This document shows positions 2,959-40,322 of a stretch of 64,000 nucleotides of DNA, piece by piece. The number at the start of each line of letters is the position of its first letter. Within the stretch, counting starts at the first letter, position 1. Made by a program: the position numbers and the translations under genes. The stretch covers positions 96,001 through 160,000 of the forward strand of contig CAWFAD010000007.1 in assembly GCA_963813815.1 (NCBI GenBank), given 5' to 3'. A model generated the notes under the pieces. That model was not told where the DNA came from and ran no database searches. It saw only the letters and a program-made list of their open reading frames with translations. The stretch is from an uncultured bacterium. GTDB lineage: Bacteria; Krumholzibacteriota; Krumholzibacteriia; Krumholzibacteriales; Krumholzibacteriaceae.

Positions 2959-3525
2959 ATGAAACGAGCGATATTGATTCTCCTCGTGCTCGCCTTCAGC
3001 GCGAGCGGGGCGTTGGCGCAGCCGGATTCGTCTTACGTCGGTGTATTCAGCGACGTCAACCACAGCATCTGGCGAGTCGACTATACGGCGGTGCCGCCGG
3101 CGCCGACCCTGTTTTACGCGTACATTTGGTGGCTCCCGAGCGTCCGCGGGATTACCGGCGCCGAGTTCGCCCTCACCTATCCGACGTCGATGTCGGATAT
3201 GATTATCGCGCTCACTACACTGAACCCGACGGATCTTTTCGTGATGGGCACCCTCGCCTCGGGGATCACGATCGCCTGGAACGGCAACTGCATGACGGAC
3301 TGGACCTACTCGCACCGCCTGACGTGTTATCTCTTCAGCGTGAATCCCAACCAGATCATGATCGTGGAGCACCCGACCGTCGTTCCATCCGAGTACCACG
3401 TATCGACCTGCGAGCTCGGCACCCCGATCGAGCCCGTGAAGCGCTACACGCACCTCTATCTCAACTGGGACGGCGGGATAGCGGTGGAGAACACGAGCTG
3501 GGGGGCGATCAAGAGCCTCTTTTAG
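2959..3525 (+). CDS. Secreted beta-rich hypothetical protein with C-terminal SWGAIKSLF tail
   Basis: AAGGAGG RBS. Sec signal MKRAILILLVLAFSASGALA|Q. Ends IAVENTSWGAIKSLF. Confidence 0.85.
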   Translation: MKRAILILLVLAFSASGALAQPDSSYVGVFSDVNHSIWRVDYTAVPPAPTLFYAYIWWLPSVRGITGAEFALTYPTSMSDMIIALTTLNPTDLFVMGTLASGITIAWNGNCMTDWTYSHRLTCYLFSVNPNQIMIVEHPTVVPSEYHVSTCELGTPIEPVKRYTHLYLNWDGGIAVENTSWGAIKSLF

Positions 3526-3556
3526 GCCTCGACCACGGGAGATCGGAACCGCTTCG

Positions 3557-3584
3557 AACGGGCCGGCGTCGAGCCGGCCCGTTT
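3557..3584 (+). terminator. Intrinsic terminator-like hairpin
   Basis: AACGGGCCGGC-gtcga-GCCGGCCCGTT, ~30 nt after the stop codon; the U-tract is short. Confidence 0.6.
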
Positions 3585-3710
3585 CCATTCGCCCCATCTC
3601 GCTAGAATCGCCAACCTATTTATAAATAATAAAATACATGGCATCATGCGGCCGCCGTCCTCGATCGTTCCCGCGGGCGTCCTTAGGTAAAAGGCACCAT
3701 AATTTTTAGC

Positions 3711-3739
3711 TTGAAAAGGGCGGCGGTTGGGAGTACAAT
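3711..3739 (+). promoter_or_regulatory. Sigma70-type promoter
   Basis: TTGAAA-N17-TACAAT in the AT-rich intergenic region upstream of 3908. Confidence 0.65.
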
Positions 3740-3907
3740 GGGAGCGCTTAATCGTACAAATGAGCAAGGGGCGATCTAGGGGGCGCGTTTCACTGGAGCC
3801 GCGTGCGCTTGTCGAAGGAGGTGGCCGGGGAAATAAAAAAAGCTATCGACTCTCTCGCAATCGTTTCCACAGCGATACCGGGCTCAGTCTTTACTGGAGG
3901 GGTAAGC

Positions 3908-4615
3908 ATGACCAAAATGAAAACCATGGCGCTCGCGGCCGCGCTCGTGACGCTTCTCGCGTCGGCGGCCTATTCCATATGCGAGATTCTGCCGACCGAC
4001 GGCACGTACTCGACCTACGCGGGCACCCTGCTTTCGGGGCGCGTATCGGAGGCATGGTGCACGCTCCAGCGCCCGGGAGTGCCCGGCAACACTGAAAACG
4101 CCGAATCATGGAACGGCGCCGCTCTCGGCACGCAGTGGCATGCGTGGGGAATGGCGATCGACGAGGTCGGCCCGGTCGAGACCGCGCGCTTCCTCGACGC
4201 GGGCGGCACCGGCTGGATCGACTACAATACGAACTACGACGGCGGGCTCTTCTGGCTCGCCGGATCGGGACCGTGGGGAGGCCCCGCGGAGGGATTCACC
4301 GGCTTCATCACCTACTACAACGTGAGCACGAGGGTGACGTACGTCAACAACGCGATAGTCGGGGCCACCTCGAACGTCTTCTTCACCGGCGGCTTCGACA
4401 TCTGCCCGACCTGCTCCATCGAGTACGCGATCGCGAACGCCATGCTCGTCTGGCAGACGGGTATGCTGAACCAGCCCGCGAACTATCCGGCGTTCCTGTG
4501 CGACGCGACCGCCGGCGAGTACTTCGACGCGTGCTGCATCCAGGCCAAGATCTACTGCATTCCGATCGGCACGGAGCCCTCGTCCTGGGGCGCGATCAAA
4601 TCGATGTACCGCTGA
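3908..4615 (+). CDS. Secreted Cys-containing hypothetical protein with C-terminal SWGAIKSMYR tail
   Basis: GGAGG RBS. Signal peptide MTKMKTMALAAALVTLLASAAYS. Contains 8 Cys. Ends IGTEPSSWGAIKSMYR. Confidence 0.85.
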   Translation: MTKMKTMALAAALVTLLASAAYSICEILPTDGTYSTYAGTLLSGRVSEAWCTLQRPGVPGNTENAESWNGAALGTQWHAWGMAIDEVGPVETARFLDAGGTGWIDYNTNYDGGLFWLAGSGPWGGPAEGFTGFITYYNVSTRVTYVNNAIVGATSNVFFTGGFDICPTCSIEYAIANAMLVWQTGMLNQPANYPAFLCDATAGEYFDACCIQAKIYCIPIGTEPSSWGAIKSMYR

Positions 4616-4643: not shown

Positions 4644-4678
4644 GAAGGGCCGGCGCGTGCGCCGGCCCTTCTCGTTTT
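4644..4678 (+). terminator. Intrinsic terminator
   Basis: GAAGGGCCGGCGC-gt-GCGCCGGCCCTTC followed by TCGTTTT. Confidence 0.7.
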
Positions 4679-4810: not shown

Positions 4811-7800
4811 ATGCTGAAGAAGCGATTGCTGCGCGGCTGCCTCGTCGCCGCGGCGCTCGGAGGCCTCGCCCTGCCGGCCGTCGGCGCCTTCGCGGGCGAG
4901 AACGAGGATCTCAACTTCGCCAAGAAGCTCCGTAGAGACGGCATGCACGTCGCGGCCGCCGAGGAGTTCCTGCGCTTCACCGAAAAATACCCGCAGAGCG
5001 CTCTCCGGCCGGAAGCGCTTTTCAGCGCCGGGGAGTCGTATCTTCAGGCGGGCAAGGCGGCGGACGCCCTCGGCGCCTACGAAAAGTTCATCGAGCAGTA
5101 TCCGCGGGACGAGCGGGCCTGCCTCGCGAGGCTTCAGCGCGGACGCGTTTTCAAGGCGCTCAAGCGCTACCGCGAGGGAGCCGAAGAGTTTCTTCTGATC
5201 CCCGAGGAGAATCCCGCCTGCCCCTCGTACGATCAGGCCCTGCTCGAAGCGGGGGACTGTCTCATCTCGCTCGGCGACTCCGAGGGCGCCGCGAAGGTGC
5301 TCCGGCGCCTCATCGGCGAGCGCAAGGATAGCGAGCTCGCCGCGAGGGCCCGCTACACGCTGGCCGTCGCGCTGACGAACACCGGGCGCGATCTCGAGGC
5401 AGAGACCGTTCTCGGCGAGGTCGTCTCGATGTATCCCCGCTCCCCCGTTCGGGCGCTCGCCCTTCTCGAGCTCGGCCGGAGAGCGGTCGCCAGGGGCGAC
5501 TACTCGCGCGCCGAGGGGCATTACCGGACGGTCGAAAAGGAGTTCGAGGAGGCCCCGCTCCCGGAGAAGGCGACGATCGGCATCATCGACATTCACGCGA
5601 AGCGCGGAAACGTCGAGGGAGTCCTCGCCGAGTCGGAGCGTTTTCTCAAGGCGTACCGCGCCTCCGACAGCAGGCCGCGCGTCATGCGGGGGGCGGTCGA
5701 CGCGGCATGGAAGCTCAAGAAGCACGATCGGGCGCTCGTGCTTATCGATTCGCTCGGCGCCTCGGCGGCCGCGGACACCTCCGGAGAGCTGCTCCTCATC
5801 GGAAGCCGCATATTGCTCGACAAGGGCAGGACGGACGAATCGCTCGCGCGCCTCGGAGAGATGCGGCGGCGGTTCCCGGCCTCGCCGCTCGCGAAGGACG
5901 CTCTCGTGCTCGAGGGCGACATCCGCGACCGGTCGGGTTCCCCGCTCGAGGCCGCCCGGCTCTACAACCTCGCCCTCATGGGCGCCGTCGACGCCGAGGA
6001 GCGGGTGAGGCTCTGCGCTAAGCTCGCCGAGCTCTCCGCCTCGAAGCTCGGCGATACGCTTTCGGCGATTCGCTACCACGCGATCGTGGCGAATGAGGAC
6101 AAGGGGGGGAGCGCGGCCGAGGAGGCTCTCTTTCAGGGGAGCGTGCTCCGCGAGCGGACCGGCGATCTCGACCGCGCCGCTCGGGGTTACGAGGATATCC
6201 TCGCGCGGTTTCCCGGCGGAGCGCGCGAGCGGGAGGCCCGCCAGCGCCTCGAATGGGTCTCGGCGCGGCCGCGGTGCACGGAGGCGGTCTCGCGCGCCCT
6301 CGCGCGGATAGCCGCATGGGACGCCCCCGCCGTCTACCGCGCTCTCGAGACGGGCTCCGTTCTCGTCGCGGACGCCCGCGACGCCGAGGCCGCGATCCCG
6401 CTCCTCGAGCGCTCGCTCGCGGGAGCGCTTCCCGATTCGCTTCGCGCAAAGGGAAGCTACTATCTCGGCCGCGCGCGTCTCATGCGGGCTTCGCTCATGG
6501 ATGCGCGGGGCGCGGGCGGATCTCCGGAGCGCGCGAAGGGTCTCGATCTCCTGCGGGAGACGATGCGGATGCAGGCGGGCGGCCCGTGGACGGAGCGGGC
6601 GCACCGGGCCTGGATCGAGGGGGACGTCTCGGCGGCGACGGGCGCCGAAAGATTGGCGAGGCTCGACGAGTATCTCGCCGTCCACGGGAGAAGCTCCGGC
6701 AGATGGTGGGCGCTCGTGAAGAAGGCGGAGATGCTCGGCGAACGGGCCTCGGCGGGAGACACCGCCGCCGCGAACGGGGCTCTCGCCGCCTCCCTCGCCG
6801 TCAAGGCGGGGGACGCGCCGCCGGCCGAGAAGAAGCAGGCCGCCTACCTCGCGGCCACGTTCCTCGGAGCCCGGCGCGGCCGCGCCGAGGCGGTCCGCGC
6901 CTACGAGGAGTTCATATCCGCGTATCCCGATGATCCTCGCGTCACGGCGATGCTCTACGATCTCGGGGAATCGCTGCTGGCTCTCGGCGACCACGCCGGC
7001 GCCGCGGCGGCATACGATCGATGCGTCTCCCGAGCCCCCGGCCGGGCGCTCGCCGAGCGGTGCGCGATCCGAAAGGGAGACTGTCTCTTTTATCAGGGCA
7101 AGTTCGCCGAATCGGCCGAGGCGTTCTCCGCCTTCGCCGCGAGCTTCCCGGGAAGCGATCTCGCCGGCGAAGCGACCCTCCGGGCCGCGTTCGCCCTCGA
7201 GAAGCAGGGGGACGACCGGCGGGCCGAGGAGCTCGTCGCCTCGCTCGCCGCGAGGAGCGCCGCCGCCGCGCCGGCTCGGGCGAGGGCGCTCGCGTGGCTC
7301 GGGACGCGGTACGCCGGACGGCGGGACTACGCGAAGGCGCGGCCGCTTCTCGACGAGCTCGTCGCCGTGGAGCGGACCTCCGCGAACGCCGCCCTCGCCG
7401 CGGAAGCGGCGCTCGGCGTCGGCGATTACCGCGCCGCGGAGAAGGGTTTCACGGAAGCCCTCCGGCTCTCCGGCGCGGACACGTGCCGCGTCGTCGCGGG
7501 CAGGGCGAAGGCGTACCTGCGCCTCGGCGACGCCGGAGCGTACGACGCCGACGCGCGGAGGCTCGCGGCCCGATGCGGCCCGGGGGGAGAGCTCGCCGGC
7601 ATACTTCTCGAGAAGGGGCGCATGGAGGCCGAGGCGGGGCGTTGCGAGAACGCCGCCAGAACCCTCGACGAGCTTCAGAAAAACCACCAGGGTTCGAGCG
7701 AGAGCGGCGAGGCGTATTTCTATCTCGCCCTCTGCGACCTCAAACGCGGCGGCTACGGGGAGGCCGCCGACAAGCTCGCGAGGTTCATCCAGGGCTCCCC

Positions 7801-8461
7801 GCGTTCGCCCATACTGCCGGAGGCATACTTCAAGCTCGCTTCGGCGCAGTACGGGGCCGGGAACCTGAACCTCGCCGCGCAGAACTACGCGCTCGCCGGC
7901 GAAGCGACGAAGGATTCCGAGCTCGAGTTCGCGGCGCGAAAGAATCTCGGCCGGGTCTATCAGCAGCTCGAGCAGTGGAACGACGCCGCGTCGACGTGGC
8001 AGAAGCTCGTCGAGGACTATCCCGAGCGGGACGGCATCGTCGAGGTTCTGTTCGATCTCGGATTCGCGTACGGCCAGGCGGGCCGCAACGAGCTCGCCTA
8101 CGACGTTTACAGCCGGATTCCCGACGTCGCGACGGACGAGGAGCAGCAGGGGCGCGCCCATTACTGGGCGGGAATGAGCCTCAAATCCCTGCGGCGCTTC
8201 GATGAGGCGATCCGCGAGTTTCTCCGCGTGCCATACCTGCGCACGGGAGGGATGTGGGGCGTGACGGCGAAGCTCGAGGCGGCCTCGTGCTACGAGCTCG
8301 TCGGCGACCTCGCCCAGGCGAAAACGATATACGACGGCGTGCTTGCCGCGCACGGCGCGGCCTCGGACTGGGGACGCGTCGCCTCCGAAGGAATCAAACG
8401 CGTCGAGGAGAGACGGGCGGGGGGCGGAGCGCCGTCCAGCGCGCCGGACAAAAAGGATTAG
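4811..8461 (+). CDS. Large exported TPR-repeat protein (BamD/CpoB-like repeats), ~1216 aa
   Basis: Signal peptide, then many TPR units ending in F/Y-P-x-S turns (EKYPQS, EQYPRD, RRFPAS, SFPGS, EDYPER). Confidence 0.85.
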
Positions 8462-29429: not shown

Positions 29430-29565
29430 TTTCACGGAGACGGAAAATAGCTCCAAAGTGATATAGAGACCCACACCTTATCTATTTCCTCCCGGTCCGT
29501 TTCGTGATCGCAGGGGGGAGTAGTATCCAAGGCATTTTATGGACCTTTTGGCAAGGAGTGGAACG

Positions 29566-32500
29566 ATGAAGGGTCGCACTGGCGCCCGAGCGGGTGCGTT
29601 CGTGCTGACGGCGTCGCTCATGATTCTTGTTGCCTCCTCCATCGCGTTCGCCCAATCGGGACGGGTCACAGGCAAGGTGGTCGACGAGGCAACGGGCGAG
29701 CCGCTCGCCTTTGCGAACGTGATCGCCGTGGGGACGACGATGGGCGCGATGACGCTGAACGACGGCACGTTCACGATCAGCGGCGTTCCCGTCGGCACGT
29801 ACACGGTGCGGGCGATGATGATGGGGTACCAGGCTTCCGACAAGGCCGGCGTCCGGGTCGATGCAGGGGTGCCGACCGAGGTCAACTTCCGGCTCAAAGA
29901 GGCGATCGTCGGCAGGACGCAGGAGATCCTCGTGGAGGCCGAGATCCCGCAGATCGACGTGAAATCGAGCGACCAGCGCCAGCGCGTGTCGAGCGACCAG
30001 CTCAAGGAGCTCCCCGTCGACGACGTCGCCGAGGCGATCGCGCTCAAGAGCGGCATCGTCAAGACCGGCGACGAGCTTCACGTGCGCGGCGGCCGGGGCG
30101 GCGAGGTGCAGTTCCAGATCGACGGCGTTCCGGTCGACGATCCGCTCGGCACAGGACAGATCTCCGTGGGGCTTCTCGGCACCGACCAGAGCGAGGTCAT
30201 CACGGGAGGCATGGACGCCGAGTACGGAAACGCCCAGTCGGCCATCATCAACGTCAGCACCCGAGAGGGCGGCAAGAACTTCGAGGGCCAGGTCCGCTAC
30301 ATGACGGACGATTTCGGCCGCAGGGACAAGACCTATACGAACTACGACCGCCTCGGCGTCGGCTTCGGCGGTCCGACCCCCATACGGAACCTCACGTACT
30401 ACATGTCGGGCGAGGCGACTTTCTCGGACGGCGAGAACTGGACGATCGCCGACCGGGACGAGACGAAGCTTCTCGGCGGGCTCGTCAAGTACTCCGGCCG
30501 CCAGTACATCGATTACAACGTTCAGGGCAAAGTCGCCTGGCAGCTCAACCCGCGCCTGAAGGTCATCGGCGAGGCGATCTACTCGCACGGCGTGAGCGAT
30601 CGCTACATCCACAACTGGAACATCGACGGGTACGTCCAGAAGGTCTACCGCTTCCTCACGCTGCGTCCGAGCCGCGACGTGGTGGCCGACGAGGCGCGTT
30701 CCTTCGGAGCGTACACGAGCATCTACCACGGGCCGTGGATCGATCAGGAAGTCACGCGCGTCGAATACTACCCCGGCTCCGAGGACGAGCGCCGACGCGT
30801 CGTGTACCCGATCATCGTCTTCGCGAAGGTGCGCGATCCGAACGATCCGAACCGCCCCGCGTTCCTCGTGCGGTACGACAGCTTCTACGCGCGCATGCTC
30901 ACCAACGTGTTCGGCGAGGAAACCGAGGTCATCTGGGACGAGGCGATCGTCGACGGGAACGGCGTGCGCACCGGCTACTACCAGAGCAAGCAGCTCTTCG
31001 AGGGCTTCCAGAATCCGGAGAGCAAGTTCAGCTACTTCCGCGACGATTCGAGCTACGTCTATTTCAACTCGGCCGAGCGCGTCTCGACGAACGAATCGGA
31101 CGATCTCAACCTCAAGGTCGCCGTCAACCACAACATCTCGGACGACGTGCTCTACACGGTGAGCCTGTCGCGTCTCCAGTTCAAGCTGCTCACGACGGTG
31201 GACGGCAAGCTTCCGGACGAGTATAACACGGCCGGTCTTCCGGCGACCCTCCCGAGCGGCTCGTGGCGCTACAGCGGCGTGAGCGACCAGAACTTCTATA
31301 CGGATCCCGACTATCCGTACTTCGTAACCTGCTACGATTATCCGCAGTACACGAACCGTCTCAGCAAGACCTACAACCTCAAGGCGGATTTGACCTCGAA
31401 GAAGTGGCAGAATCACCAGTTCAAAACGGGAGTTCAGTTCATCTATAACGATCTCGACGAGGAGTTCCGGAACTTTCCGGGACGGATACGTCCGCTCGGC
31501 GACGGCACGTACATGCAGGGCCTCAGCCAGAACGTCTTTCACAACTTCAACCCCGAGGCCTCCTACTACGTGCAGGACAAATGGCAGTACCAGGGGATGG
31601 TCGTGAACAGCGGCGTTCGCGTCGACTTCTTCTCTCCGGGCAACAACACCGAGATCCGCATCAACAGCTCCCAGATCGACCCGAACGTCGACAAGTACAA
31701 GTTCCAGATCAGCCCGCGTCTCGGTTTCGCGTTTCCGATCACCGACCGCGACAAGTTCCACTTCCACTACGGACGGTTCACCCAGTGGCCGAACCGCAAC
31801 TTCCTGTTCCAGTCGCAGGACGTGCTGAACGGCGTCGGCGTCATCGGCAATCCCGATCTCGACGAGGAGCTCACCGTCTCCTACCAGGCGGGTGTGTCCC
31901 ATCAGTTCACCGAAACGGTCGCCACGCACTTCGTGGTGTTCACGAAGGACATCTTCGGCCTCATCTCGACGACGCGCGTGCTCGACGAGGAGCTCGGGGT
32001 GCAGTCGTACCGGTTCATCAACCGCACGTACGCGAGCTCCCGCGGCTTCGAGGTGAGCATCGAGAAGCAGCGCAGCCACTACGTCGGCGGAGAGATCTCG
32101 TATACGTTCTCCTACGCCGACGGCGTCGCCTCCGACGCGTTCTTCGGCGTCTCCGCGGAGGGGCTCACCCACTTGCCGACGCAGGAGATGCCGCTCGACT
32201 GGGATCAGCGGCACACGCTGAACGTCACGCTCAGCCTGCAGGATCAGAACAAGTGGGGAGCGACGATCGTGTACCAGTTCGGGAGCGGGCTCCCGTGGAC
32301 TCCGGTCGACCGCTTCGCGCGGCGGCAGGATCCGCTCTGGGAGAACTCGGAGCGCCTGCCGGCGACCCATACCGTGAACCTGCAGGGACGCAAGATGTTC
32401 AACATCTACGGCCAGGAGCTGACGCTGTTCTTCGAAGGGCGCAACCTCCTGAACGAGGATATCATTCTTTCGACGGCCCCGGGCGCTTTCCCCGGCATGA

Positions 32501-32670
32501 TCAACGCGACCATGGACGGCGGCTCCTATCTGAGCGAAACCGGACGGTTCGGGGGCGCCTATCTCCAGGATCTTAATGAGGACGGAATCGACGACTTCAC
32601 GCCGGTGAACGATCCCACCGTGTGGGGCGATCGCAAGGCGTGGCGCATCGGATTCGGATTCGAATTCTAA
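29566..32670 (+). CDS. TonB-dependent receptor with N-terminal carboxypeptidase-regulatory-like domain
   Basis: Signal peptide; GRVTGKVVDEATGEPLAFANV; plug motifs HVRGGR, IDGVPV and TGGMDAEYGNAQSAIIN; ISPRLGFAFPI; GNPDL; C-terminal GFGFEF. Confidence 0.92.
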   Translation: MKGRTGARAGAFVLTASLMILVASSIAFAQSGRVTGKVVDEATGEPLAFANVIAVGTTMGAMTLNDGTFTISGVPVGTYTVRAMMMGYQASDKAGVRVDAGVPTEVNFRLKEAIVGRTQEILVEAEIPQIDVKSSDQRQRVSSDQLKELPVDDVAEAIALKSGIVKTGDELHVRGGRGGEVQFQIDGVPVDDPLGTGQISVGLLGTDQSEVITGGMDAEYGNAQSAIINVSTREGGKNFEGQVRYMTDDFGRRDKTYTNYDRLGVGFGGPTPIRNLTYYMSGEATFSDGENWTIADRDETKLLGGLVKYSGRQYIDYNVQGKVAWQLNPRLKVIGEAIYSHGVSDRYIHNWNIDGYVQKVYRFLTLRPSRDVVADEARSFGAYTSIYHGPWIDQEVTRVEYYPGSEDERRRVVYPIIVFAKVRDPNDPNRPAFLVRYDSFYARMLTNVFGEETEVIWDEAIVDGNGVRTGYYQSKQLFEGFQNPESKFSYFRDDSSYVYFNSAERVSTNESDDLNLKVAVNHNISDDVLYTVSLSRLQFKLLTTVDGKLPDEYNTAGLPATLPSGSWRYSGVSDQNFYTDPDYPYFVTCYDYPQYTNRLSKTYNLKADLTSKKWQNHQFKTGVQFIYNDLDEEFRNFPGRIRPLGDGTYMQGLSQNVFHNFNPEASYYVQDKWQYQGMVVNSGVRVDFFSPGNNTEIRINSSQIDPNVDKYKFQISPRLGFAFPITDRDKFHFHYGRFTQWPNRNFLFQSQDVLNGVGVIGNPDLDEELTVSYQAGVSHQFTETVATHFVVFTKDIFGLISTTRVLDEELGVQSYRFINRTYASSRGFEVSIEKQRSHYVGGEISYTFSYADGVASDAFFGVSAEGLTHLPTQEMPLDWDQRHTLNVTLSLQDQNKWGATIVYQFGSGLPWTPVDRFARRQDPLWENSERLPATHTVNLQGRKMFNIYGQELTLFFEGRNLLNEDIILSTAPGAFPGMINATMDGGSYLSETGRFGGAYLQDLNEDGIDDFTPVNDPTVWGDRKAWRIGFGFEF

Positions 32671-32698
32671 GGGTGCGCGACAAGAGGAGGATGTGCGA

Positions 32699-35183
32699 AT
32701 GAATCGCAAGGCGTTCAAGCTGGCGGCGGCACTGGCCGTGGCGCTGCCGATCGCGACCGCCTCGTACGCGAGGGACACCAGCACGTGGATCGAGAAGGTC
32801 AAGGATCCCGCCAGCCCCGTCTGGGTCCTCGACGGCTCGTCGGTGCACAACGTCGGGAATCTGCAGATGCACGTGACGAACTGGGGCGCGATCGGTTCGT
32901 ATCCGGGGTCGACGTTTCCCACGGGGGAGGCGCCGTCCGCCCAGTGGCCCGCCAACTCCGGCGTCGAGTACCTCTACATCGCGGGGCTCTGGGTCGGCGC
33001 GAAGAAAAACGGGATCCCCGTCGTGTCGACCGCCGCGTACGACATCGAGTTCCGGCCGGATCCGATCGATCCCCTCGCGAGGATATACCGCTCGTTCGAG
33101 GGCGCCGCTGGCGGCGCCCGCTATCCGAGCCCGCCCGACGACGACAAGGACGGCCAGATCAACGAGGACTGGCTGAACGGATCCGACGACGACGGCGACG
33201 GCAAGATCGACGAGGACTTCGCGGCGATCGGCAAGCAGATGTTCGCGTGCTGGTTCACCGACTTCGATCCGTCCTCCATCCAGGCGAACCCCGAGCATAC
33301 GCCGCTCAATCTCTTGGTCCGCCAGGAGAGCTACCAGTGGGAGGAGGAAAAGTTCTACAACTTCGTCGGTCTCGAGTACAAGATCAAGAACGTCGGAACG
33401 GAGAGCATCGAAGACCTCTATATCGGATTCTTCGCCGACGGCGACGCGGGCCCGCGCACCCGAGGAGCGTACCGGCTCGACGACTGCACGGGATACTGGC
33501 GAGGGTATCGTTTGCGCCGAGCGCGGCGACAACATCGTGCCGATCCGCGTGAGCTGCGCCTATTTCTGGACAAGGACGGCGACGAGGGGGCCACCGGGGC
33601 TATCTCGGCGTCCTCTTCCTCGGCCACAGCACCGACCCGCTCGGGAAAACGCTCCGAAGACGCGTCGCCATCACCTCATACCAGAACTTCGCGCGGGATC
33701 AGCCGTACGAGGAACGGCGGCGACCCGAACAACGACTTTCAGCATATGAGCTGCTGAGCAAGACAACGCGGGATCGCACGCAGGAAGTGCCCCTCGATTA
33801 CCGGATGCTGCTCGCGTACGGGACCTTCGGCGAGCTCGCGCCGGACAGCCAGCTCGATGCCTGCAGGTCGCGTTCTGCTGCGGCTGACGGTCGAGGAAGG
33901 CATGAAGACGGCCGCGGCGAGCGCCGCGCTCACGTTCTCGGGCAACTGGTTCGACATCGACGGAAACGCCCTCACGGGAAAGGACGCCGTGAGACGCCGG
34001 TCTACGGCCCCGCATCGAGCGTCGAGCCCGATTCCTGCGACGGAGAACACCGAGACGCTGTCGGCCGCGAGAGACGAGGTCATCTGGATCAACGCCGATT
34101 GCCGCCGGGAAATCGAGCTCTTTATCGATCGGAGCTGCCCCCAGGGAAACACGTCGTTCGCGGAGTTCCAGACGGGCGTGAACGGCAGGGAAAGGCAGGT
34201 CAATCTGGCTCGTCGGATCCGCGCCGCCGCCCGCCCGTCATGCGCTCATCCCCGAGGATCGAAGGTCACCCTTCTCTGGGACAACCGCAGCGAGGTCACT
34301 CCCGACGCGAGCACGCTCGAGTACGATTTCGAGGGGTACCGGATCTGGCGGGCGGACGGCTGGGACGCGTCCGTTCGGCACCTCGATTCTCACCGGGCCC
34401 TTCGCGCGACCTCTGGCAGCTCCTCGAGGAGAGGGATCTCGTGAACGGGCGTGTGCCGGATCTCGAGTTCAAGAAACCGTTTTCGTAACAACGGATGGGA
34501 ATACGAGCCGCTCCTCGCCCTCGGCGATCGGACAGGAACGATATCGTCGAGTACTTCGAGCAGAGCATCTACTAGTATCCGTGGACGACGTTCCCTGCCC
34601 GCCGGGACTGAGCGAGCTCGAGTGCGACACGATCGAGGCTCTCGCCCGTTACAATCTCGGTTTCGAGGGCGGGCTCCAGTACTACCAGTACGTCGACGGT
34701 CGGTTCACAACGGCATGCATTACTTCTACGCGTGACTCGTTCGACCACGTCATCACGGACGGCCTGCCGGTCGCGTCGGTTACTTCGGCGACCCGCGTCG
34801 AACTTCCAGTACATCGACACCGCTCTCGACGGCGCGGAGCAATCCGCCGCCTATCACGTGGAAGAGGTGTACGTCGTTCCGAATCCGGCGACGCGCGAGT
34901 CGCTCTCTCCGTGGCAGCTCTTTCCGAACAACGCCGATCCGACCGGCCTCAAGGTCGAGTTCCGGAACCTGCCGAATTGCCGAGCACGATACGCATCTAC
35001 ACGCTCGCCGGGGATCTCGTCGAGGTGCTCTATCACGACGGCGCCGGCGGAAACGGGAGCCACCGTGGGATCTCGTGTCGCGGAACGGACAGGACGTGAC
35101 GAGCGGCATGTATCTCTTCGTCGTGGAGAGCGTAGGACGACTCGTTCGACCGGACGATCGGCAAGTTCGTCGTGATCAGATGA
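32699..35183 (+). pseudogene. Large exported protein with FN3-like module and T9SS-like C-terminal domain; broken by many frameshifts (probably consensus errors)
   Basis: GAGGAGG RBS and signal peptide. HNVGNLQMHVTNWG, EYLYIAGLWVGA, Dx[DN]xDG repeats. Fragments in shifting frames: KVTLLWDN..DFEGYRIWR, VYVVPNP, TIRIYTLAGDLV, WDLVSRNGQDVTSGMYLFVVE, IGKFVVIR*. Confidence 0.75.
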
Positions 35184-35233
35184 CGAAACGAACGATACAC
35201 AATGACTGGATTCAATCCGAGGAGGTTGCAGAG

Positions 35234-36176
35234 ATGAAACGCAGGATTCTTCTGGCGGCGCTGGCGATCGTGATGATCCCGGGCGATCGTCGCGGCGGCG
35301 ACGAAGCCGTTCGAGAAGGTTGGGACCTATGCGGCCCAATTCCTCAAGATCGGCCCGTCGGCCCGCGCGGTGGGCATGGGAGGCGCTTTCACGGCGGTCG
35401 CGAACGACGCCACGTCGATCTACTGGAACCCCGCCGGCATCGTCGAGCAGACGCGGACGCAGGTGACGCTCAACAACGTCATCTATCCGGCCGACATCGA
35501 CATCTACTTCGCCGCGGCCGTTTTCAGCACGCCGTACCTGCCCGGCACCTTCGGCGTCAGCGCGCGCGCACTCACGATGGATCCGCAGGAGGAGCGCACC
35601 ATTTACATGCCGGAGGGCACGCGGCGGTACTTCGACGCGGGCGATATGTCCTTCGGGCTCACCTACGCCACGTATTTCACCGACCGCTTTTCCGCCGGTT
35701 TCACGGCCCATTTCCTCCACATGGGTCTCGCCGACAAGAGCGTCGAATCGCTCGCCTTCGATTTCGGCCTCCTGTACCGGATCGGCATTCAGGGCATGCG
35801 TCTCGGTATGATCGTGCAGAGCCTCGGCGGCGAGGTCGATTTCGACGACCGTTCGTCGAAGCTCCCGACTCTCTTCAAGGTGGGGCTCAGCGTCGACGCT
35901 TACCGCAGCGGCGCGCACGCCCTGCTGGCGACCGGAGAGTTCCAGCACCCGGTCGACAACAAAGAGCGCATGAACGTCGGCATGGAGTACGCGTTCAACC
36001 AGTTCTTCATGCTGCGCGGCGGGTACAACATCGGATACGATACCCAGGGCCTCGCGGGGGGCGCAGGATTCCGCCTCGACACGAGCCAAACCTCCGATAT
36101 CGGGCTCGATTACGCGTGGGAGGATCTCGGAAGTCTCGGAACGACCCACCGGTTCAGCCTGAATTTCAGCTACTGA
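35234..36176 (+). CDS. PorV/PorQ-family (FadL-like) outer-membrane beta-barrel (one frameshift near 35280)
   Basis: GGAGG RBS and MKRRILLAALAIVMIP. After a one-base shift: KVGTYAAQFLKIGPSARAVGMGGAFTAVANDATSIYWNPAG...LRGGY...DYAW...THRFSLNFSY. Confidence 0.85.
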
Positions 36177-36192
36177 CGTGAGGTCGCCGCAT

Positions 36193-37704
36193 ATGCGCGA
36201 CTGGCACCGCAAGGGATCGCGAATCAACCTCCTCGGAGCCATCCTCCCGGTGCTCGTCGCGCTCGCGGCCGGAGGTGGCGCGCTCGCCGCCTCGCTCGTC
36301 GGTCAGGGCGATTTTGATTTCTACGTCGACGTCGCCTCTCTCCCCACGGGAACCGGAGACGCGATACAGCTTCTGCAGGTCGCCGTGCCGACCAGGGAGC
36401 TGCGGTACGCGGAACAAGACGGCCTCTTCCGGGCCGAGATCCGCGTCACCTACGATATTCGCGCCGGGGACGAGAGCGTTTTCCGAAAAGCCGTGGAGCT
36501 CCGCGACTCGCGCTCCAACCCCCCGGCGGTGAAAGACCTCTCCTCGTTTCTCTGCCATATCGATTCGTGCTCGGTAGCGCCCGGGAACTATACCCTCACC
36601 GTGAAGGTGGAGGATCTCCAGCGCCGCAAGCAAACGCTGCTCGGATGGATGCGCAAGTCATATGCCGTCTCGATCGTCGATGAAGTCCCCGTCGAGGTGA
36701 CCGCTTCGCCGGCGGGGGCCCTCGTCGTCGGCGATCCCATCCTCGTGTGGTCGATCGACTCGCGCGGCGGCGTCATGCCCAACCCCATGCAGATTTACGG
36801 GTTGCGCAAGGACACGCTGACCGTGCTCGCGAACGTCGCCCTGCCGCCTCCGGCCTACGCCGACTCGCTCCGGATCCGGCTCTCGCTCACGAAGGGCGAA
36901 GGGGAGGCCATCGACGAGAAGCGCATCGCTGTGCCGCTGCGCGACGGGAGGAGCGTTTTCGTCGAGTCCTTCGACCTCGCCACCTATTCCGCCGGAGACT
37001 ATCGCGTTCTCATCGAGGCGGAGGCGGGGGACGGGCGTTTCGCTTCCGCGGGGAAGGATTTCACCGTCGCCTGGGAGCTTCTCAACTGGCAGCGGCCGGC
37101 GCGCGACATACTCATCGAGGCGGGTTTCATGTTCAACGAAGAGGAGTACGGGCGGTTCAGGCGCATGACGCTCGGGGAACAGGAAGCGCGCCTCAAGAGC
37201 GTGTGGAAGGCGATCGATCCGACGCCGCACACCGCGGTGAACGAGGCGTACGCGACCTTCCTCGCGCGGGTTCGATACGCCGACTCCCACTTCGGCGTGT
37301 TTCAGAGGGGCGTCAACTCCGACCGGGGCAGGGTGTACGTACGGCTGGGCCAGCCCGACGAAATCATCGTCCGGCCGGTTCCCAAGGACCGGGCGGATCT
37401 GCTCTCGGGCATGAACAAGGTCGGGGACGATTACGAGATCGTTCTCGAGGGCTCCCAGAGCGAGCGGGAGGCCCTGATGAGGGACATTCAACCGAGAGTC
37501 GTCTCTCCCGAGCGGCAGAGGGCCACGCGGGGAGACGTCGGGGGAGACGCGGGATCGTTCGAGATCTGGGCGTACAATATGAAGGGCGCGCCCCTGTTCT
37601 CCGGCGATTCGGGGATGACCATCAAATCGGGGCTCCGTTTCCTGTTTCTCGATAGCGACGGATACGGAGATTACCGTCTCGTCGGCACGTCGGAGGATAT
37701 GTAG
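36193..37704 (+). CDS. GWxTD-domain exported protein
   Basis: N-terminal hydrophobic segment and beta-sandwich-like domains, then WKAIDPTPHTAVNE...RVRYADSHF...GVNSDRGRVYVRLGQPD...FEIWAY...FLFLDSDGYGDYRL. Confidence 0.85.
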   Translation: MRDWHRKGSRINLLGAILPVLVALAAGGGALAASLVGQGDFDFYVDVASLPTGTGDAIQLLQVAVPTRELRYAEQDGLFRAEIRVTYDIRAGDESVFRKAVELRDSRSNPPAVKDLSSFLCHIDSCSVAPGNYTLTVKVEDLQRRKQTLLGWMRKSYAVSIVDEVPVEVTASPAGALVVGDPILVWSIDSRGGVMPNPMQIYGLRKDTLTVLANVALPPPAYADSLRIRLSLTKGEGEAIDEKRIAVPLRDGRSVFVESFDLATYSAGDYRVLIEAEAGDGRFASAGKDFTVAWELLNWQRPARDILIEAGFMFNEEEYGRFRRMTLGEQEARLKSVWKAIDPTPHTAVNEAYATFLARVRYADSHFGVFQRGVNSDRGRVYVRLGQPDEIIVRPVPKDRADLLSGMNKVGDDYEIVLEGSQSEREALMRDIQPRVVSPERQRATRGDVGGDAGSFEIWAYNMKGAPLFSGDSGMTIKSGLRFLFLDSDGYGDYRLVGTSEDM

Positions 37705-37768
37705 ACGGCATCCCGCGAGGCTCGCCCGGCCGGGCCGGTGCGCCGCTCGTGGCGGGAGGAATTTTCCA

Positions 37769-37797
37769 TTGACAAGGGGGGGGCCATCGATTATTTT
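37769..37797 (+). promoter_or_regulatory. Sigma70-type promoter upstream of exbB
   Basis: TTGACA-N17-TATTTT. Confidence 0.6.
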
Positions 37798-37955
37798 GCA
37801 CACATTAAAGACTTGGCTGAACGTGGGTTGGGAGCACCGAGGGTCATTCCCGCTCTGTATTGAGCCGTTGTTTTTCGTCGCTCGCGGGTGATCCCTTCAA
37901 TGAGGAATCAATTACCAAGCCGCCACACACAGGAGAAGCAGGAGGAGCGCGTGGT

Positions 37956-38819
37956 ATGGTAGCAAAGAACCTTTCGAAGCTCGCAGTGCTCGCTGCGGTG
38001 GCCCTCATCGCGATCGGCGGGATCTATCTGTCGGCCGCGTACGCCCAGGAAACGGGAGCGGCGCCGGCGACGACCGAAGCGGCGGCGCAGGGTGGGCAGG
38101 ACGAGCTCGCGATGTCCAAGGCGGACTCGCTCACAATCGTGAAGAAGATCGAGAACATGGCCGAGCATAAGCGTCTCGGATGGTTCTACAACATCCGCTA
38201 CAGCGGGCTCGGCGATTTCTTCGTGCGCGGCGGCGTTTTCATGTGGCCGCTGCTCGCGTGCTCGATCATCGCGCTCGTGTTCATTCTCGAGCGCCTCTTT
38301 ACTCTGTCGCGCGCGCGCGTCGACGTGAAATCCCTCATGACCCGCGTGACCCAGGCGCTCCGCGCCGAAGGGGTCGACGCGGCGCTCAAGGTCTGCGAGT
38401 CGACTCGCGGCCCCATCGCCGCCGTTATTCACTCGGGCCTCCTCCGGTCGGGACAGGGTCCCGAGGCGGTGAAGGAAGCGATCGAGACGGCCGGTTCGAT
38501 CGAAACCTCCTTCCTCGAGCGCGGTCTCGTGGTCCTCGCGACCGTTTCGACCGTCGCGCCGATGCTCGGGTTCCTCGGAACGGTGTCGGGTATGATGAGC
38601 GCCTTCGCCGCCATCGCTGCGGCGGAGCAGGTGAGCGCGAAGATCGTCGCCTCTGGTATCGAGGAGGCGCTTATTACGACGATCGCGGGCCTCACGATCG
38701 CCATTCCGGCGAGCGTCGGGCACGCCTATTTCGTTTCCCAGATCGAGCGGTTCGTGCTCGAGATGGAAGAGGCCTCCGCCAATCTCGTGAACGAGCTCGT
38801 CGAACTCGGCAAGAAGTAG
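37956..38819 (+). CDS. exbB: MotA/TolQ/ExbB proton channel protein with N-terminal extension
   Basis: GGVFMWPLLACS, APMLGFLGTVSGM, GIEEALITTIAGLTIAIPA. Confidence 0.9.
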   Translation: MVAKNLSKLAVLAAVALIAIGGIYLSAAYAQETGAAPATTEAAAQGGQDELAMSKADSLTIVKKIENMAEHKRLGWFYNIRYSGLGDFFVRGGVFMWPLLACSIIALVFILERLFTLSRARVDVKSLMTRVTQALRAEGVDAALKVCESTRGPIAAVIHSGLLRSGQGPEAVKEAIETAGSIETSFLERGLVVLATVSTVAPMLGFLGTVSGMMSAFAAIAAAEQVSAKIVASGIEEALITTIAGLTIAIPASVGHAYFVSQIERFVLEMEEASANLVNELVELGKK

Positions 38820-38839
38820 CCGCGAACGAGAGGATTGCC

Positions 38840-39250
38840 ATGGCAATCAAGAAAACAAAGTTGGAGCCGACGATTCCTGCGGCATCGCTGTCGGACATTA
38901 TCTTCCTGCTTCTCATTTTCTTCCTCGTCACGACGACGATGTCGGTCGAGAAGGGGCTGCCGATGTCGCTCCCCGGCAAGCAGTCGAAGACCGTGAAGCT
39001 CAAGCAGGAGTCGGTGTTCAACATCAAGATCACCTCCGACGGGCAGATCATCATAAAGGACATCGGCCCGATCGGGATCGGGCGCGTAAAACCGCTCATC
39101 GAGGACAAGCTCGGTCTCAACGACAAGCTCGTCATCGTCATTGAGACGCACCCCGACGCCAATTACGGCGTGATGATAGACGTCCTCGACGAGCTGCGGC
39201 TCGCAAAGGCCACGCGCATCTCGCTGCGGACGACGCAGCCGGGAACGTAG
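38840..39250 (+). CDS. exbD: ExbD/TolR family protein 1
   Basis: IPAASLSDIIFLLLIFFLVTT, YGVMIDVLDEL. Confidence 0.9.
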   Translation: MAIKKTKLEPTIPAASLSDIIFLLLIFFLVTTTMSVEKGLPMSLPGKQSKTVKLKQESVFNIKITSDGQIIIKDIGPIGIGRVKPLIEDKLGLNDKLVIVIETHPDANYGVMIDVLDELRLAKATRISLRTTQPGT

Positions 39251-39264
39251 AGGAGGCCTCCTCG

Positions 39265-39671
39265 GTGAAGATAAAGAGACGCATACGGGTCAAGAACGAG
39301 ATACCGACCGCCTCGATGGCCGATATCATCTTCAACCTGCTCCTCTTTTCATGGTAACGAGCATCTTCAAGATGGAGGAAGGGCTGCCCATCCAGCTCCC
39401 GCGCGCGAAATCGGGCGCCGACACGCAGCGGCAGCAGATCGTCCACATCTGGGCCGATCGCTTCAGCCGGATCAGCATCAACGACAAGCTCGTGCGCATC
39501 GAGCACATTCAGGGGATCATGGCGAGCCGTCTCGAGGAGGATCGCAGCATCATCGTCGCCTTCAACGTCGACGGCCGCACGAAGTACAAGCTCGTTTCCG
39601 ATATCATGGAGCAGCTCAAAGAAGCGAACGCCATCAACGTGACCTTTACGTCACTGTACGAGTCGGATTAA
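39265..39671 (+). CDS. exbD: ExbD/TolR family protein 2 (one-base deletion in the T-run at 39346-39349)
   Basis: GTG start after AGGAGG. EIPTASMADIIFNLLLF[F]MVTSIF is restored by adding one T. Also LPIQLPRA and YKLVSDIMEQLK. Confidence 0.85.
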
Positions 39672-39689
39672 GCGCAAAGGGGTACGAGC

Positions 39690-40322
39690 GTGGCCCTCGT
39701 TCTCGCAGAAAACCAGAAATTCAAGCTCGGATACAACCGCTATATTCGCAACGCGCTCTACGTGACTCTCGCGATTCACGTCATTCTCTTCTACATGACG
39801 CCCACTTTCAAGTTCAAGCCGTACGTGCTGCGCGAGGAGTATTTCGAGGCGATCGAGCTTCCCGAGCAGTTCGAGCTCCCGCCGCCGCCGAAGGAGATCA
39901 CCGCGCCCGCCGTGCCGATCGAAGCGGCCGAGGGCGAGGAGGTCGACGAAGAGGCGGACATCGCCCCGACGAGTTTCGAGCGCATCGAGGACGTTCCGCC
40001 TCCTCCGCCTCCTCCCTCCGAGCAGGCGTCGGAGTTCTACGCGTTCGACGAACCCCCGGTCCTCATCAAGTTCGTGAACCCCAAGTACCCCGATCTTGCC
40101 CGTCAGGCGGGGATCGAGGGGACGGTTCTCCTGAACGTGCTCGTGAGCGACAACGGCAAGGTGGTCGCCGTCGCCGTGCTCCAATCGGACGTCACCCCGG
40201 CGATGGACAAGGCGGCGATCGAGGCGGCGAGGCAGTTCATCTTCAAGCCGGCGAAGCAGCGAACCGTGCCCGTCAAGGCTCGCATGGCGATCCCGATCCG
40301 GTTCAAGCTGCACGGCGGCTGA
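39690..40322 (+). CDS. tonB: Energy transducer TonB
   Basis: TM helix with ALYVTLAIH, Pro-rich linker, YPDLARQAGIEGTVLL...FKPA...IPIRF. Confidence 0.9.
   Translation: MALVLAENQKFKLGYNRYIRNALYVTLAIHVILFYMTPTFKFKPYVLREEYFEAIELPEQFELPPPPKEITAPAVPIEAAEGEEVDEEADIAPTSFERIEDVPPPPPPPSEQASEFYAFDEPPVLIKFVNPKYPDLARQAGIEGTVLLNVLVSDNGKVVAVAVLQSDVTPAMDKAAIEAARQFIFKPAKQRTVPVKARMAIPIRFKLHGG

Follow-up and report, generated by a model that had tools for sequence, protein, structure and literature searches.

A short C-terminal tail shared by unrelated predicted-secreted proteins of Krumholzibacteriota and related phyla, and its possible relation to type IX secretion

Genes A and B and the tail that they share

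The window (the whole 64,000-nucleotide stretch of DNA that was analysed) carries two neighbouring genes, A and B, with asnS on one side of the pair and a gene for a 1215-aa TPR protein on the other (Table 1). A Shine-Dalgarno site precedes each gene, and the promoter-like match before B, together with the hairpins after A and B, suggests that the two are probably separate transcription units; the hairpin after A was found by eye and was not picked up by the promoter/terminator scan. The TPR protein, encoded directly after gene B at 4814-8461, is itself predicted to be secreted; no tie between the tail and this gene, or GWxTD, was noticed.

Table 1. Features of the A-B locus in the window, with the secretion genes of the same genome (G000) and the loci of the single-copy carrier found in Ignavibacteria and relatives.
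Feature	Position	Strand	Remarks
Gene A	2959-3525	+	188 aa, predicted secreted; signal peptide and cohesin-like beta-sandwich, then linker and tail
Predicted Sec signal peptide of A	2959-3018	+	~20 aa; from sequence, crude hydrophobicity rule
Cohesin-like body of A	3019-3465	+	AlphaFold2, Foldseek
Tail of A	3478-3525	+	predicted helix, detached from body
Core SWGAIKSLF in tail of A	3496-3522	+	
GC-rich hairpin of 11 bp, possible terminator 3′ of gene A	3557-3583	+	by eye only
Sigma-70-like promoter match 5′ of gene B	3711-3739	+	10/12, consensus match only
Gene B	3908-4615	+	235 aa, predicted secreted, cysteine-containing, no known family
Predicted Sec signal peptide of B	3908-3976	+	~23 aa; from sequence, crude rule
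Tail of B	4565-4615	+	
Core SWGAIKSMYR in tail of B	4583-4612	+	
Terminator-like hairpin 3′ of gene B	4644-4671	+	
SprA/PorU/PorV genes of G000	C7:73348-79809, C13:6-4810		
Single-copy carrier loci	L118-L123, L125, L160-L182, L232		e.g. L125:3168-3563, minus

A first-pass annotation had proposed that these adjacent genes, each with a signal peptide, encode proteins with dissimilar bodies and a common C-terminal end, and the positions that it gave for the two tails were confirmed. BLASTP of A against B aligned the tail only (9/15 identical), whilst a profile-profile comparison of the two families reported only the signal-peptide region, over 33 columns. By these comparisons protein B is unrelated to protein A, and the two are not full-length homologues. 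The tails of A and B have 8 identical residues, of which four in the core (Ser, Gly, Lys and Ser) differ in codon, as does the leading Ile; conservation is thus at the protein level, as had been claimed.

Six frames of the genome that holds the window (G000; 2.53 Mb, 90.8% complete) were searched with the strict pattern [ST]W[GS]x[IVLM]K. This gave 27 matches, 24 of them 3-8 residues before a stop; the other three comprised one at the stop of a short frame and two internal matches. The motif [ST]WGx[IVL]Kx[LM][FY][RK]-stop closes 24 reading frames of G000 and is not confined to the two proteins. Shuffled frames of the same genome gave 4.8 strict matches overall and 0.75 terminal ones (maximum 3 in 20 shuffles). 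A tail HMM, for which the 24 served as seeds, scored them at 21.5 bits versus 11.3 for all else in G000, and its search of this genome returned no member beyond them. Intact genes with signal-peptide-like starts account for 23 of the 24 frames. All 23 passed a signal-peptide rule that 315 of 859 background frames (37%) also passed, the rule being a crude hydrophobicity rule and the starts of the tail proteins having been picked by eye. None of the three outcomes that the first-pass annotation had named as fatal to its proposal (a motif limited to A and B, a motif found internally or on cytoplasmic proteins, full-length homology of A and B) was what G000 gave. The 24th frame closes a copy on contig C9 that is broken by a frameshift. 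Apparent frameshifts, perhaps assembly errors, lie at C9:18776-19205, at C6:80596-81648 and in the window at 32693-35300; one frameshift in G000 splits a tail-bearing paralogue of gene A.

The tail proteins are small (median 197 aa, range 135-327). Their bodies fall into 11 BLAST clusters, or 10 after merging of one that is a frameshifted fragment of another, and the Pfam names among them are beta-helix, lamin-tail and temptin-like. The largest tail-bearing family has the cohesin-like body of A, with 9 copies in G000 (one frameshifted), and the family of gene B has 3 copies, all with the tail. One tail protein (L010:2336-2740, minus; C5:92333-92797 in G000) combines a temptin-like domain with CxxCH and is possibly a small secreted cytochrome. 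AlphaFold2 with 67 sequences modelled A at pLDDT 91.6 as a confident cohesin-like sandwich with a loose linker, and placed over the tail a detached helix (mature residues 162-167) of low confidence (pLDDT ~58-68); a single-sequence fold of A (pLDDT 46) was too poor for use. By Foldseek the body of A has the cohesin fold, cohesins being its best hits at E 2.6e-6. It shares the beta-sandwich of cohesin modules (PDB 4dh2, 1g1k and others) at TM 0.53-0.60 and differs from them in its 7-13% identity, in having no match to the Pfam cohesin model and in being a single free module.

The tail itself is predicted to be a short free amphipathic helix, one face of which carries W, I, L and F/Y, in keeping with the short helix tag first proposed. 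Its helical hydrophobic moment has a mean of 0.47 versus 0.39 at the strand angle; the helix spans ~9 residues, with a mean hydrophobicity of 0.12. An invariant Lys, which was part of the search pattern, stands 3-8 residues from the C-terminus in a helical context, and a lead-in pattern stands before the core in 20/24 tails. The best 19-residue hydropathy around the tails has a median of 0.94 and a maximum of 1.92, giving no transmembrane segment in the tails of G000, again as had been stated. Of the 24 tails, none matched Pfam; moreover, no NCBIfam entry covers the tail, no CTD model of that collection was matched by the 24, and PDB sequence searches found nothing significant for it. A description of the tail was not found in the accessible full-text literature, which was searched for the motif strings as well and which leaves subscription papers and supplements out of its scope; the accessible portion of PMC11495043 contains nothing on C-terminal signals.

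Spread of the tail over genomes and proteins

The first-pass annotation had mentioned similar ends in related candidate phyla, and the tail does extend over related uncultured phyla. The Atlas clusters nearest to G000 belong mostly to Krumholzibacteriota. The tail model matched 121/121 genomes of the phylum of G000 (Krumholzibacteriota by inference), with from at least 1 to 57 matches each, and a tighter model matched 53/61 genomes of the phylum of an Eisenbacteria record. In a library of 1.84 billion proteins, 457 pass E 0.001 with the tail model. Among the best 150 of these 457, the motif lies ≤8 residues from the end in 148 by regex and the remaining 2 end in visible variants of it. The library carriers form 33 clusters among 160 bodies, proteins of G000 included. 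Taken together, these data support the description of the tail as a portable, near-strictly C-terminal motif on unrelated predicted-secreted proteins, and it is real, widespread and apparently undescribed in print.

Extra copies of the tail occur in 7 of the best 150 library matches, all of one family, and all but one of these proteins also match at the end by regex, that one ending in a visible variant. P0021 has four tandem copies and P0088 and P0090 two each, P0047, P0068 and P0117 have mid-protein copies, and in P0103 a copy directly follows the signal peptide. Seven tail carriers are lipoprotein-like. P0021, P0039, P0047, P0068, P0088, P0090, P0103 and P0117 make up one mostly lipoprotein-like family with two to four tail copies, set in tandem, after each repeated domain or directly after the signal peptide.

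In a named comparison set, consisting of the records of an asnS contig scan that sampled 2/64 parts, 14/47 outside genomes had a clear tail match: 8/10 labelled Ignavibacteria, along with Kryptoniota, Bacteroidota, two Chitinophagaceae-labelled, one Deferribacteres-labelled and one Eisenbacteria. The non-FCB records of this set, including those of Acidobacteriota, Nitrospira, Bacillota, Proteobacteria, Planctomycetota and Myxococcales, had no clear match. Weak matches in G143, G148 and G165 and a second match in G270 are unconfirmed as terminal and were left uncounted.

Outside Krumholzibacteriota and Eisenbacteria, the lone matches were to one protein of ~135 aa in which a signal peptide is followed by a fibronectin-like domain and then by the tail, and for which neither Pfam nor NCBIfam gave a name over cut-off. 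Its tail bears on the consensus that was first proposed: the core holds throughout, whereas the acidic lead-in does not belong to the universal core, the Ignavibacteria-type protein having basic lead-in residues there. A profile of this carrier matches 2,981 library proteins, the lower ranks being unread; each of the best 120 of the 2,981 closes with the motif, and in 115 the last 12 residues are identical. Members of the family are 26-65% identical to the first row of their alignment.

The carrier was followed in 151 genomes sampled from the phylum to which an Ignavibacteriaceae record belongs. One full-length copy is present in 53/151 genomes (the sequence of 21 of them was read), and a wider model adds 3 carrier genomes, giving 56. 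All 56 are SprA-positive and GldM-negative. The carrier is thus found in 56/83 SprA-positive, GldM-negative genomes, leaving 27 of that kind that lack it, and in 0/37 GldM-positive and 0/31 SprA-negative genomes. Among the negatives, the wider models were applied to 8 and 5 of the GldM-positive and to 8 and 4 of the SprA-negative genomes, and each negative group probably represents one or a few clades that are not independent; therefore, the split of the carrier by SprA and GldM is a pattern and not a test.

A stand-alone carrier was not found in G000 or in 7 relatives. The carrier body also stands directly before a CTD-like end of 72-100 aa in 21 of the 27 longer-protein loci read. At 27 loci of the carrier itself, no receptor gene is conserved next to it and the neighbours are housekeeping genes only (maf, spoIID, pyrB/pyrR-like and fur-like, some of these names being given by eye); in 6/27 a TPR gene lies 5′ of the carrier, and five of these six loci share one neighbourhood. 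By eye, the carrier at L118, L121, L219 and L222 comes just after a conserved tRNA-gene-like stretch. Co-folding of the canonical PorV of an Ignavibacteria genome with the carrier of that genome, SprA being absent from the model, gave scores of 0.11 and 0.01 against a mark of 0.32, which speaks neither for nor against a contact between the two.

Type IX secretion components and CTD proteins in tail-bearing genomes

PorV-like machinery had been named as a candidate partner of the tail, and G000 has it: six PorV-family proteins score over cut-off, as does PorU, whose gene lies directly before porV, and SprA is encoded as well. No match was obtained in G000 to GldM or to the PorP family (the PorP search had no positive control), nor did the PorE model give one over cut-off. 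By this measure the system of G000 differs from the canonical T9SS, which has the GldL/GldM motor. GldM was found in 0/41 genomes of the phylum of G000, whereas the same model scored over cut-off in 37/151 elsewhere; absence of the motor is judged here by the GldM model, which does not cover GldK, L or N and could miss a divergent motor.

SprA is present in 121/121 genomes of the phylum of G000. Every tail-bearing genome checked has it, namely these 121, the 56/56 carrier genomes and 8 further ones (G123, G124, G162 and five Eisenbacteria). SprA is also present in 5/5 tail-less Eisenbacteria and in a complete tail-less Latescibacterota record. With SprA nearly ubiquitous across these phyla, its co-occurrence with the tail says little.

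Two stretches of G000 carry further envelope genes. On C13 (L128:8114-15776), porU, porV and an M6 protease gene are followed on their 3′ side by candidate envelope partners: an unnamed gene of 561 aa, one with NHL repeats, one of 1132 aa that matches SprA faintly, and a member of the Omp85 family. In the window, one row at 29539-40322 holds a TonB-dependent receptor gene, its partner gene in pieces, a PorV-family gene (~35328-36176), a GWxTD gene and exbB/exbD/tonB-like genes.

G000 also has 43 FlgD-type matches, of which 33 end like type A CTDs; the end filter removed 9 of the 43 along with a CTD gene that is broken by a frameshift and lies beside the C6 pair. The CTD proteins are large (median 839, stop to stop), and the small size of the tail proteins beside them fits a light tag for single domains. 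Three body types were found in both settings, with the tail on some proteins and a T9SS CTD on others; one of them is the fibronectin-like body of the carrier. The cohesin-like body of A begins C8:100664-102148, a protein that passes TIGR04183, and the beta-helix body of tail proteins also occurs in the CTD protein at C16:426143. The shared bodies sit in multi-domain CTD proteins, so that in two of the three cases tail and CTD do not replace each other one-for-one.

By eye, the lead-in of 20/24 tails resembles a PT/GI-like linker. A shared PorU cleavage linker was not supported, the lead-in pattern occurring in only 4/38 CTD linkers versus a background of 12%; the Ignavibacteria-type tails lack the pattern. 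Clustering of tail genes near CTD genes was not significant (5/17 loci within 5 kb versus 2.9, p 0.16).

Candidate roles of the tail

The nearest known relative in architecture is the T9SS type A CTD (TIGR04183 and PF18962, with the FlgD_ig form PF13860 in G000). It too combines a Sec signal, a variable passenger and a conserved C-terminus; it shares passenger domains with the tail, and both occur in genomes with SprA, PorV and PorU. The type A CTD has a near-invariant Lys close to its end (motif E), to which the Lys of the tail, selected by the search pattern and set in a helix, may or may not correspond. On sequence and modelled structure, the tail is nevertheless not a type A CTD. As far as the accessible text of PMC11969387 describes them, type A CTDs are 40-82 residues of beta-sheet, folded as a 7-stranded sandwich or a 3-stranded sheet, whereas the tail is ~10 residues and predicted helical; the nearest type A form that we considered is the short 3-stranded CTD of Prevotella intermedia, from the same portion of that paper. 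In alignment the tail lacks the type A motifs B and D (conserved Gly, GxY) and, unlike the type A CTD, it sits on small proteins and was not found in GldM-bearing genomes. The accessible part of PMC12398890 lists CTD types A, B and C only. Type B CTDs, read by PorP/SprF shuttles, are an existing case of another class of signal that uses the same translocon through a separate reader (PMC12618676, in part); by that account a type B CTD is a folded domain, which the tail is not, and no shuttle gene stands beside the tail genes.

Tripartite sorting signals consist of a motif, then a transmembrane helix, then a basic cluster. LPXTG, PEP-CTERM, GlyGly-CTERM and MYXO-CTERM resemble the tail in being short C-terminal signatures on many unrelated exported proteins, and the tail differs from such sortase-type signals in having 3-8 residues after the motif and neither transmembrane helix nor basic cluster.

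We put at about even the chance that the tail is an address label read by part of a motor-less T9SS (SprA, the PorV family and PorU). The tail proteins would be exported by Sec to the periplasm, as their signal peptides predict, and the tail would stand out there as a free helix. A conserved envelope protein may then recognise it, a protein reader being suggested by the W, G and K that hardly vary across phyla. The T9SS would be the route from there, since on related bodies a type A CTD occupies the position of the tail, and the tail proteins would finally be displayed at the surface. The near-invariant tail of the Ignavibacteria-type carrier, in a family so divergent elsewhere, counts for reading as a label. 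Part of the literature points the same way: different CTD classes are served by shuttles of their own (accessible text of PMC12618676) and short 3-stranded CTDs exist (PMC11969387, likewise in part). Against a T9SS label stand the lack of CTD motifs B and D and of beta-sheet, the failed linker test and the lack of clustering with CTD genes. Moreover, the known CTD site, as described in the accessible part of PMC10994853, is formed jointly by SprA and PorV as a composite pocket in which ~1,850 square angstroms of a folded domain are buried, and a 10-residue helix cannot bind there as a folded CTD does. The tandem, internal and N-terminal copies, and the lipoprotein-like carriers, are likewise unusual for a cleaved export signal.

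Those same copies would suit a docking peptide no less than a cleaved signal. The tail might be an uncleaved, non-covalent docking peptide that does not drive export and that clips small modules onto a periplasmic or surface receptor in the manner of dockerin and cohesin, a role that we consider unlikely. It would account for tandem repeats of up to four, for copies after each repeated domain and for the copy at a mature N-terminus; some carriers already look lipid-anchored, W, G and K are invariant, a shared cleavage linker was not supported, and the commonest tail body is itself cohesin-like. However, the extra copies amount to 7/150 among the best library matches, in a single family, and the seven proteins also end in the motif or, in one case, in a visible variant. 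Neither is a receptor gene conserved beside the carrier in its 27 loci, and docking leaves the alternation of bodies between tail and CTD unexplained.

MinD and FtsA have short C-terminal amphipathic membrane-targeting helices with a hydrophobic-K-x-L-F pattern, and the tail is, in prediction, also a short C-terminal amphipathic helix. A comparable lipid-binding helix might keep soluble exported proteins at one face of a membrane without being read by any protein, which we regard as quite improbable. The predicted helix and its moment, and the basic K and R that flank the hydrophobic face, would suit lipid binding, and tandem copies would add avidity. The MinD and FtsA helices are cytoplasmic, variable and limited to one protein family each, whereas the tail is near-invariant on many exported families. 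Lipid binding usually needs less conservation than a W-G-x-I-K that is near-invariant across phyla with a fixed Gly. Against it stand also the shortness and low mean hydrophobicity of the helix and the finding of the tail only in SprA-bearing FCB-type genomes.

It is improbable, slightly more so than the lipid helix, that the tail signals to a non-T9SS export or processing machine which happens to share these lineages, for instance a protease acting on C-termini or an unnamed barrel of the outer membrane. The tail resembles no CTD class in structure, the presence of SprA beside it carries no information in these phyla, and the unannotated envelope genes of the porU-porV operon (561 aa, 1132 aa, Omp85-family) would offer material for such a machine. 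No candidate for it was identified, however, tail proteins and CTD cargo have bodies in common, and the tail was never met without SprA in the genomes checked. Lastly, that so short a shared end is chance or a functionless duplication remnant is virtually out of the question, refuted as it is by 24 terminal copies against 0.75 expected, by synonymous codon differences, by unrelated folds and by presence throughout the phylum in 121/121 genomes.

To return to the address label, a wider history may be sketched, tentatively and as a rather unlikely whole. In an ancestral motor-less T9SS, a 10-residue helix signal would have been read by a component of the SprA system. Ignavibacteria and relatives would keep one dedicated carrier, itself a missing core part, Krumholzibacteriota and Eisenbacteria would have expanded the tag into a general export label, and lineages with the GldLM motor would be without it.

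If the label reading is true, type IX secretion would gain a class of signal the size of a peptide, and in phyla known only from metagenomes each genome would have tens of its surface proteins named. The Ignavibacteria-type carrier provides a simple handle on the question, being one gene with an almost fixed tail, and the Ignavibacteria-type group has cultured members. Moreover, an export or display tag of 10 residues would be a useful tool.
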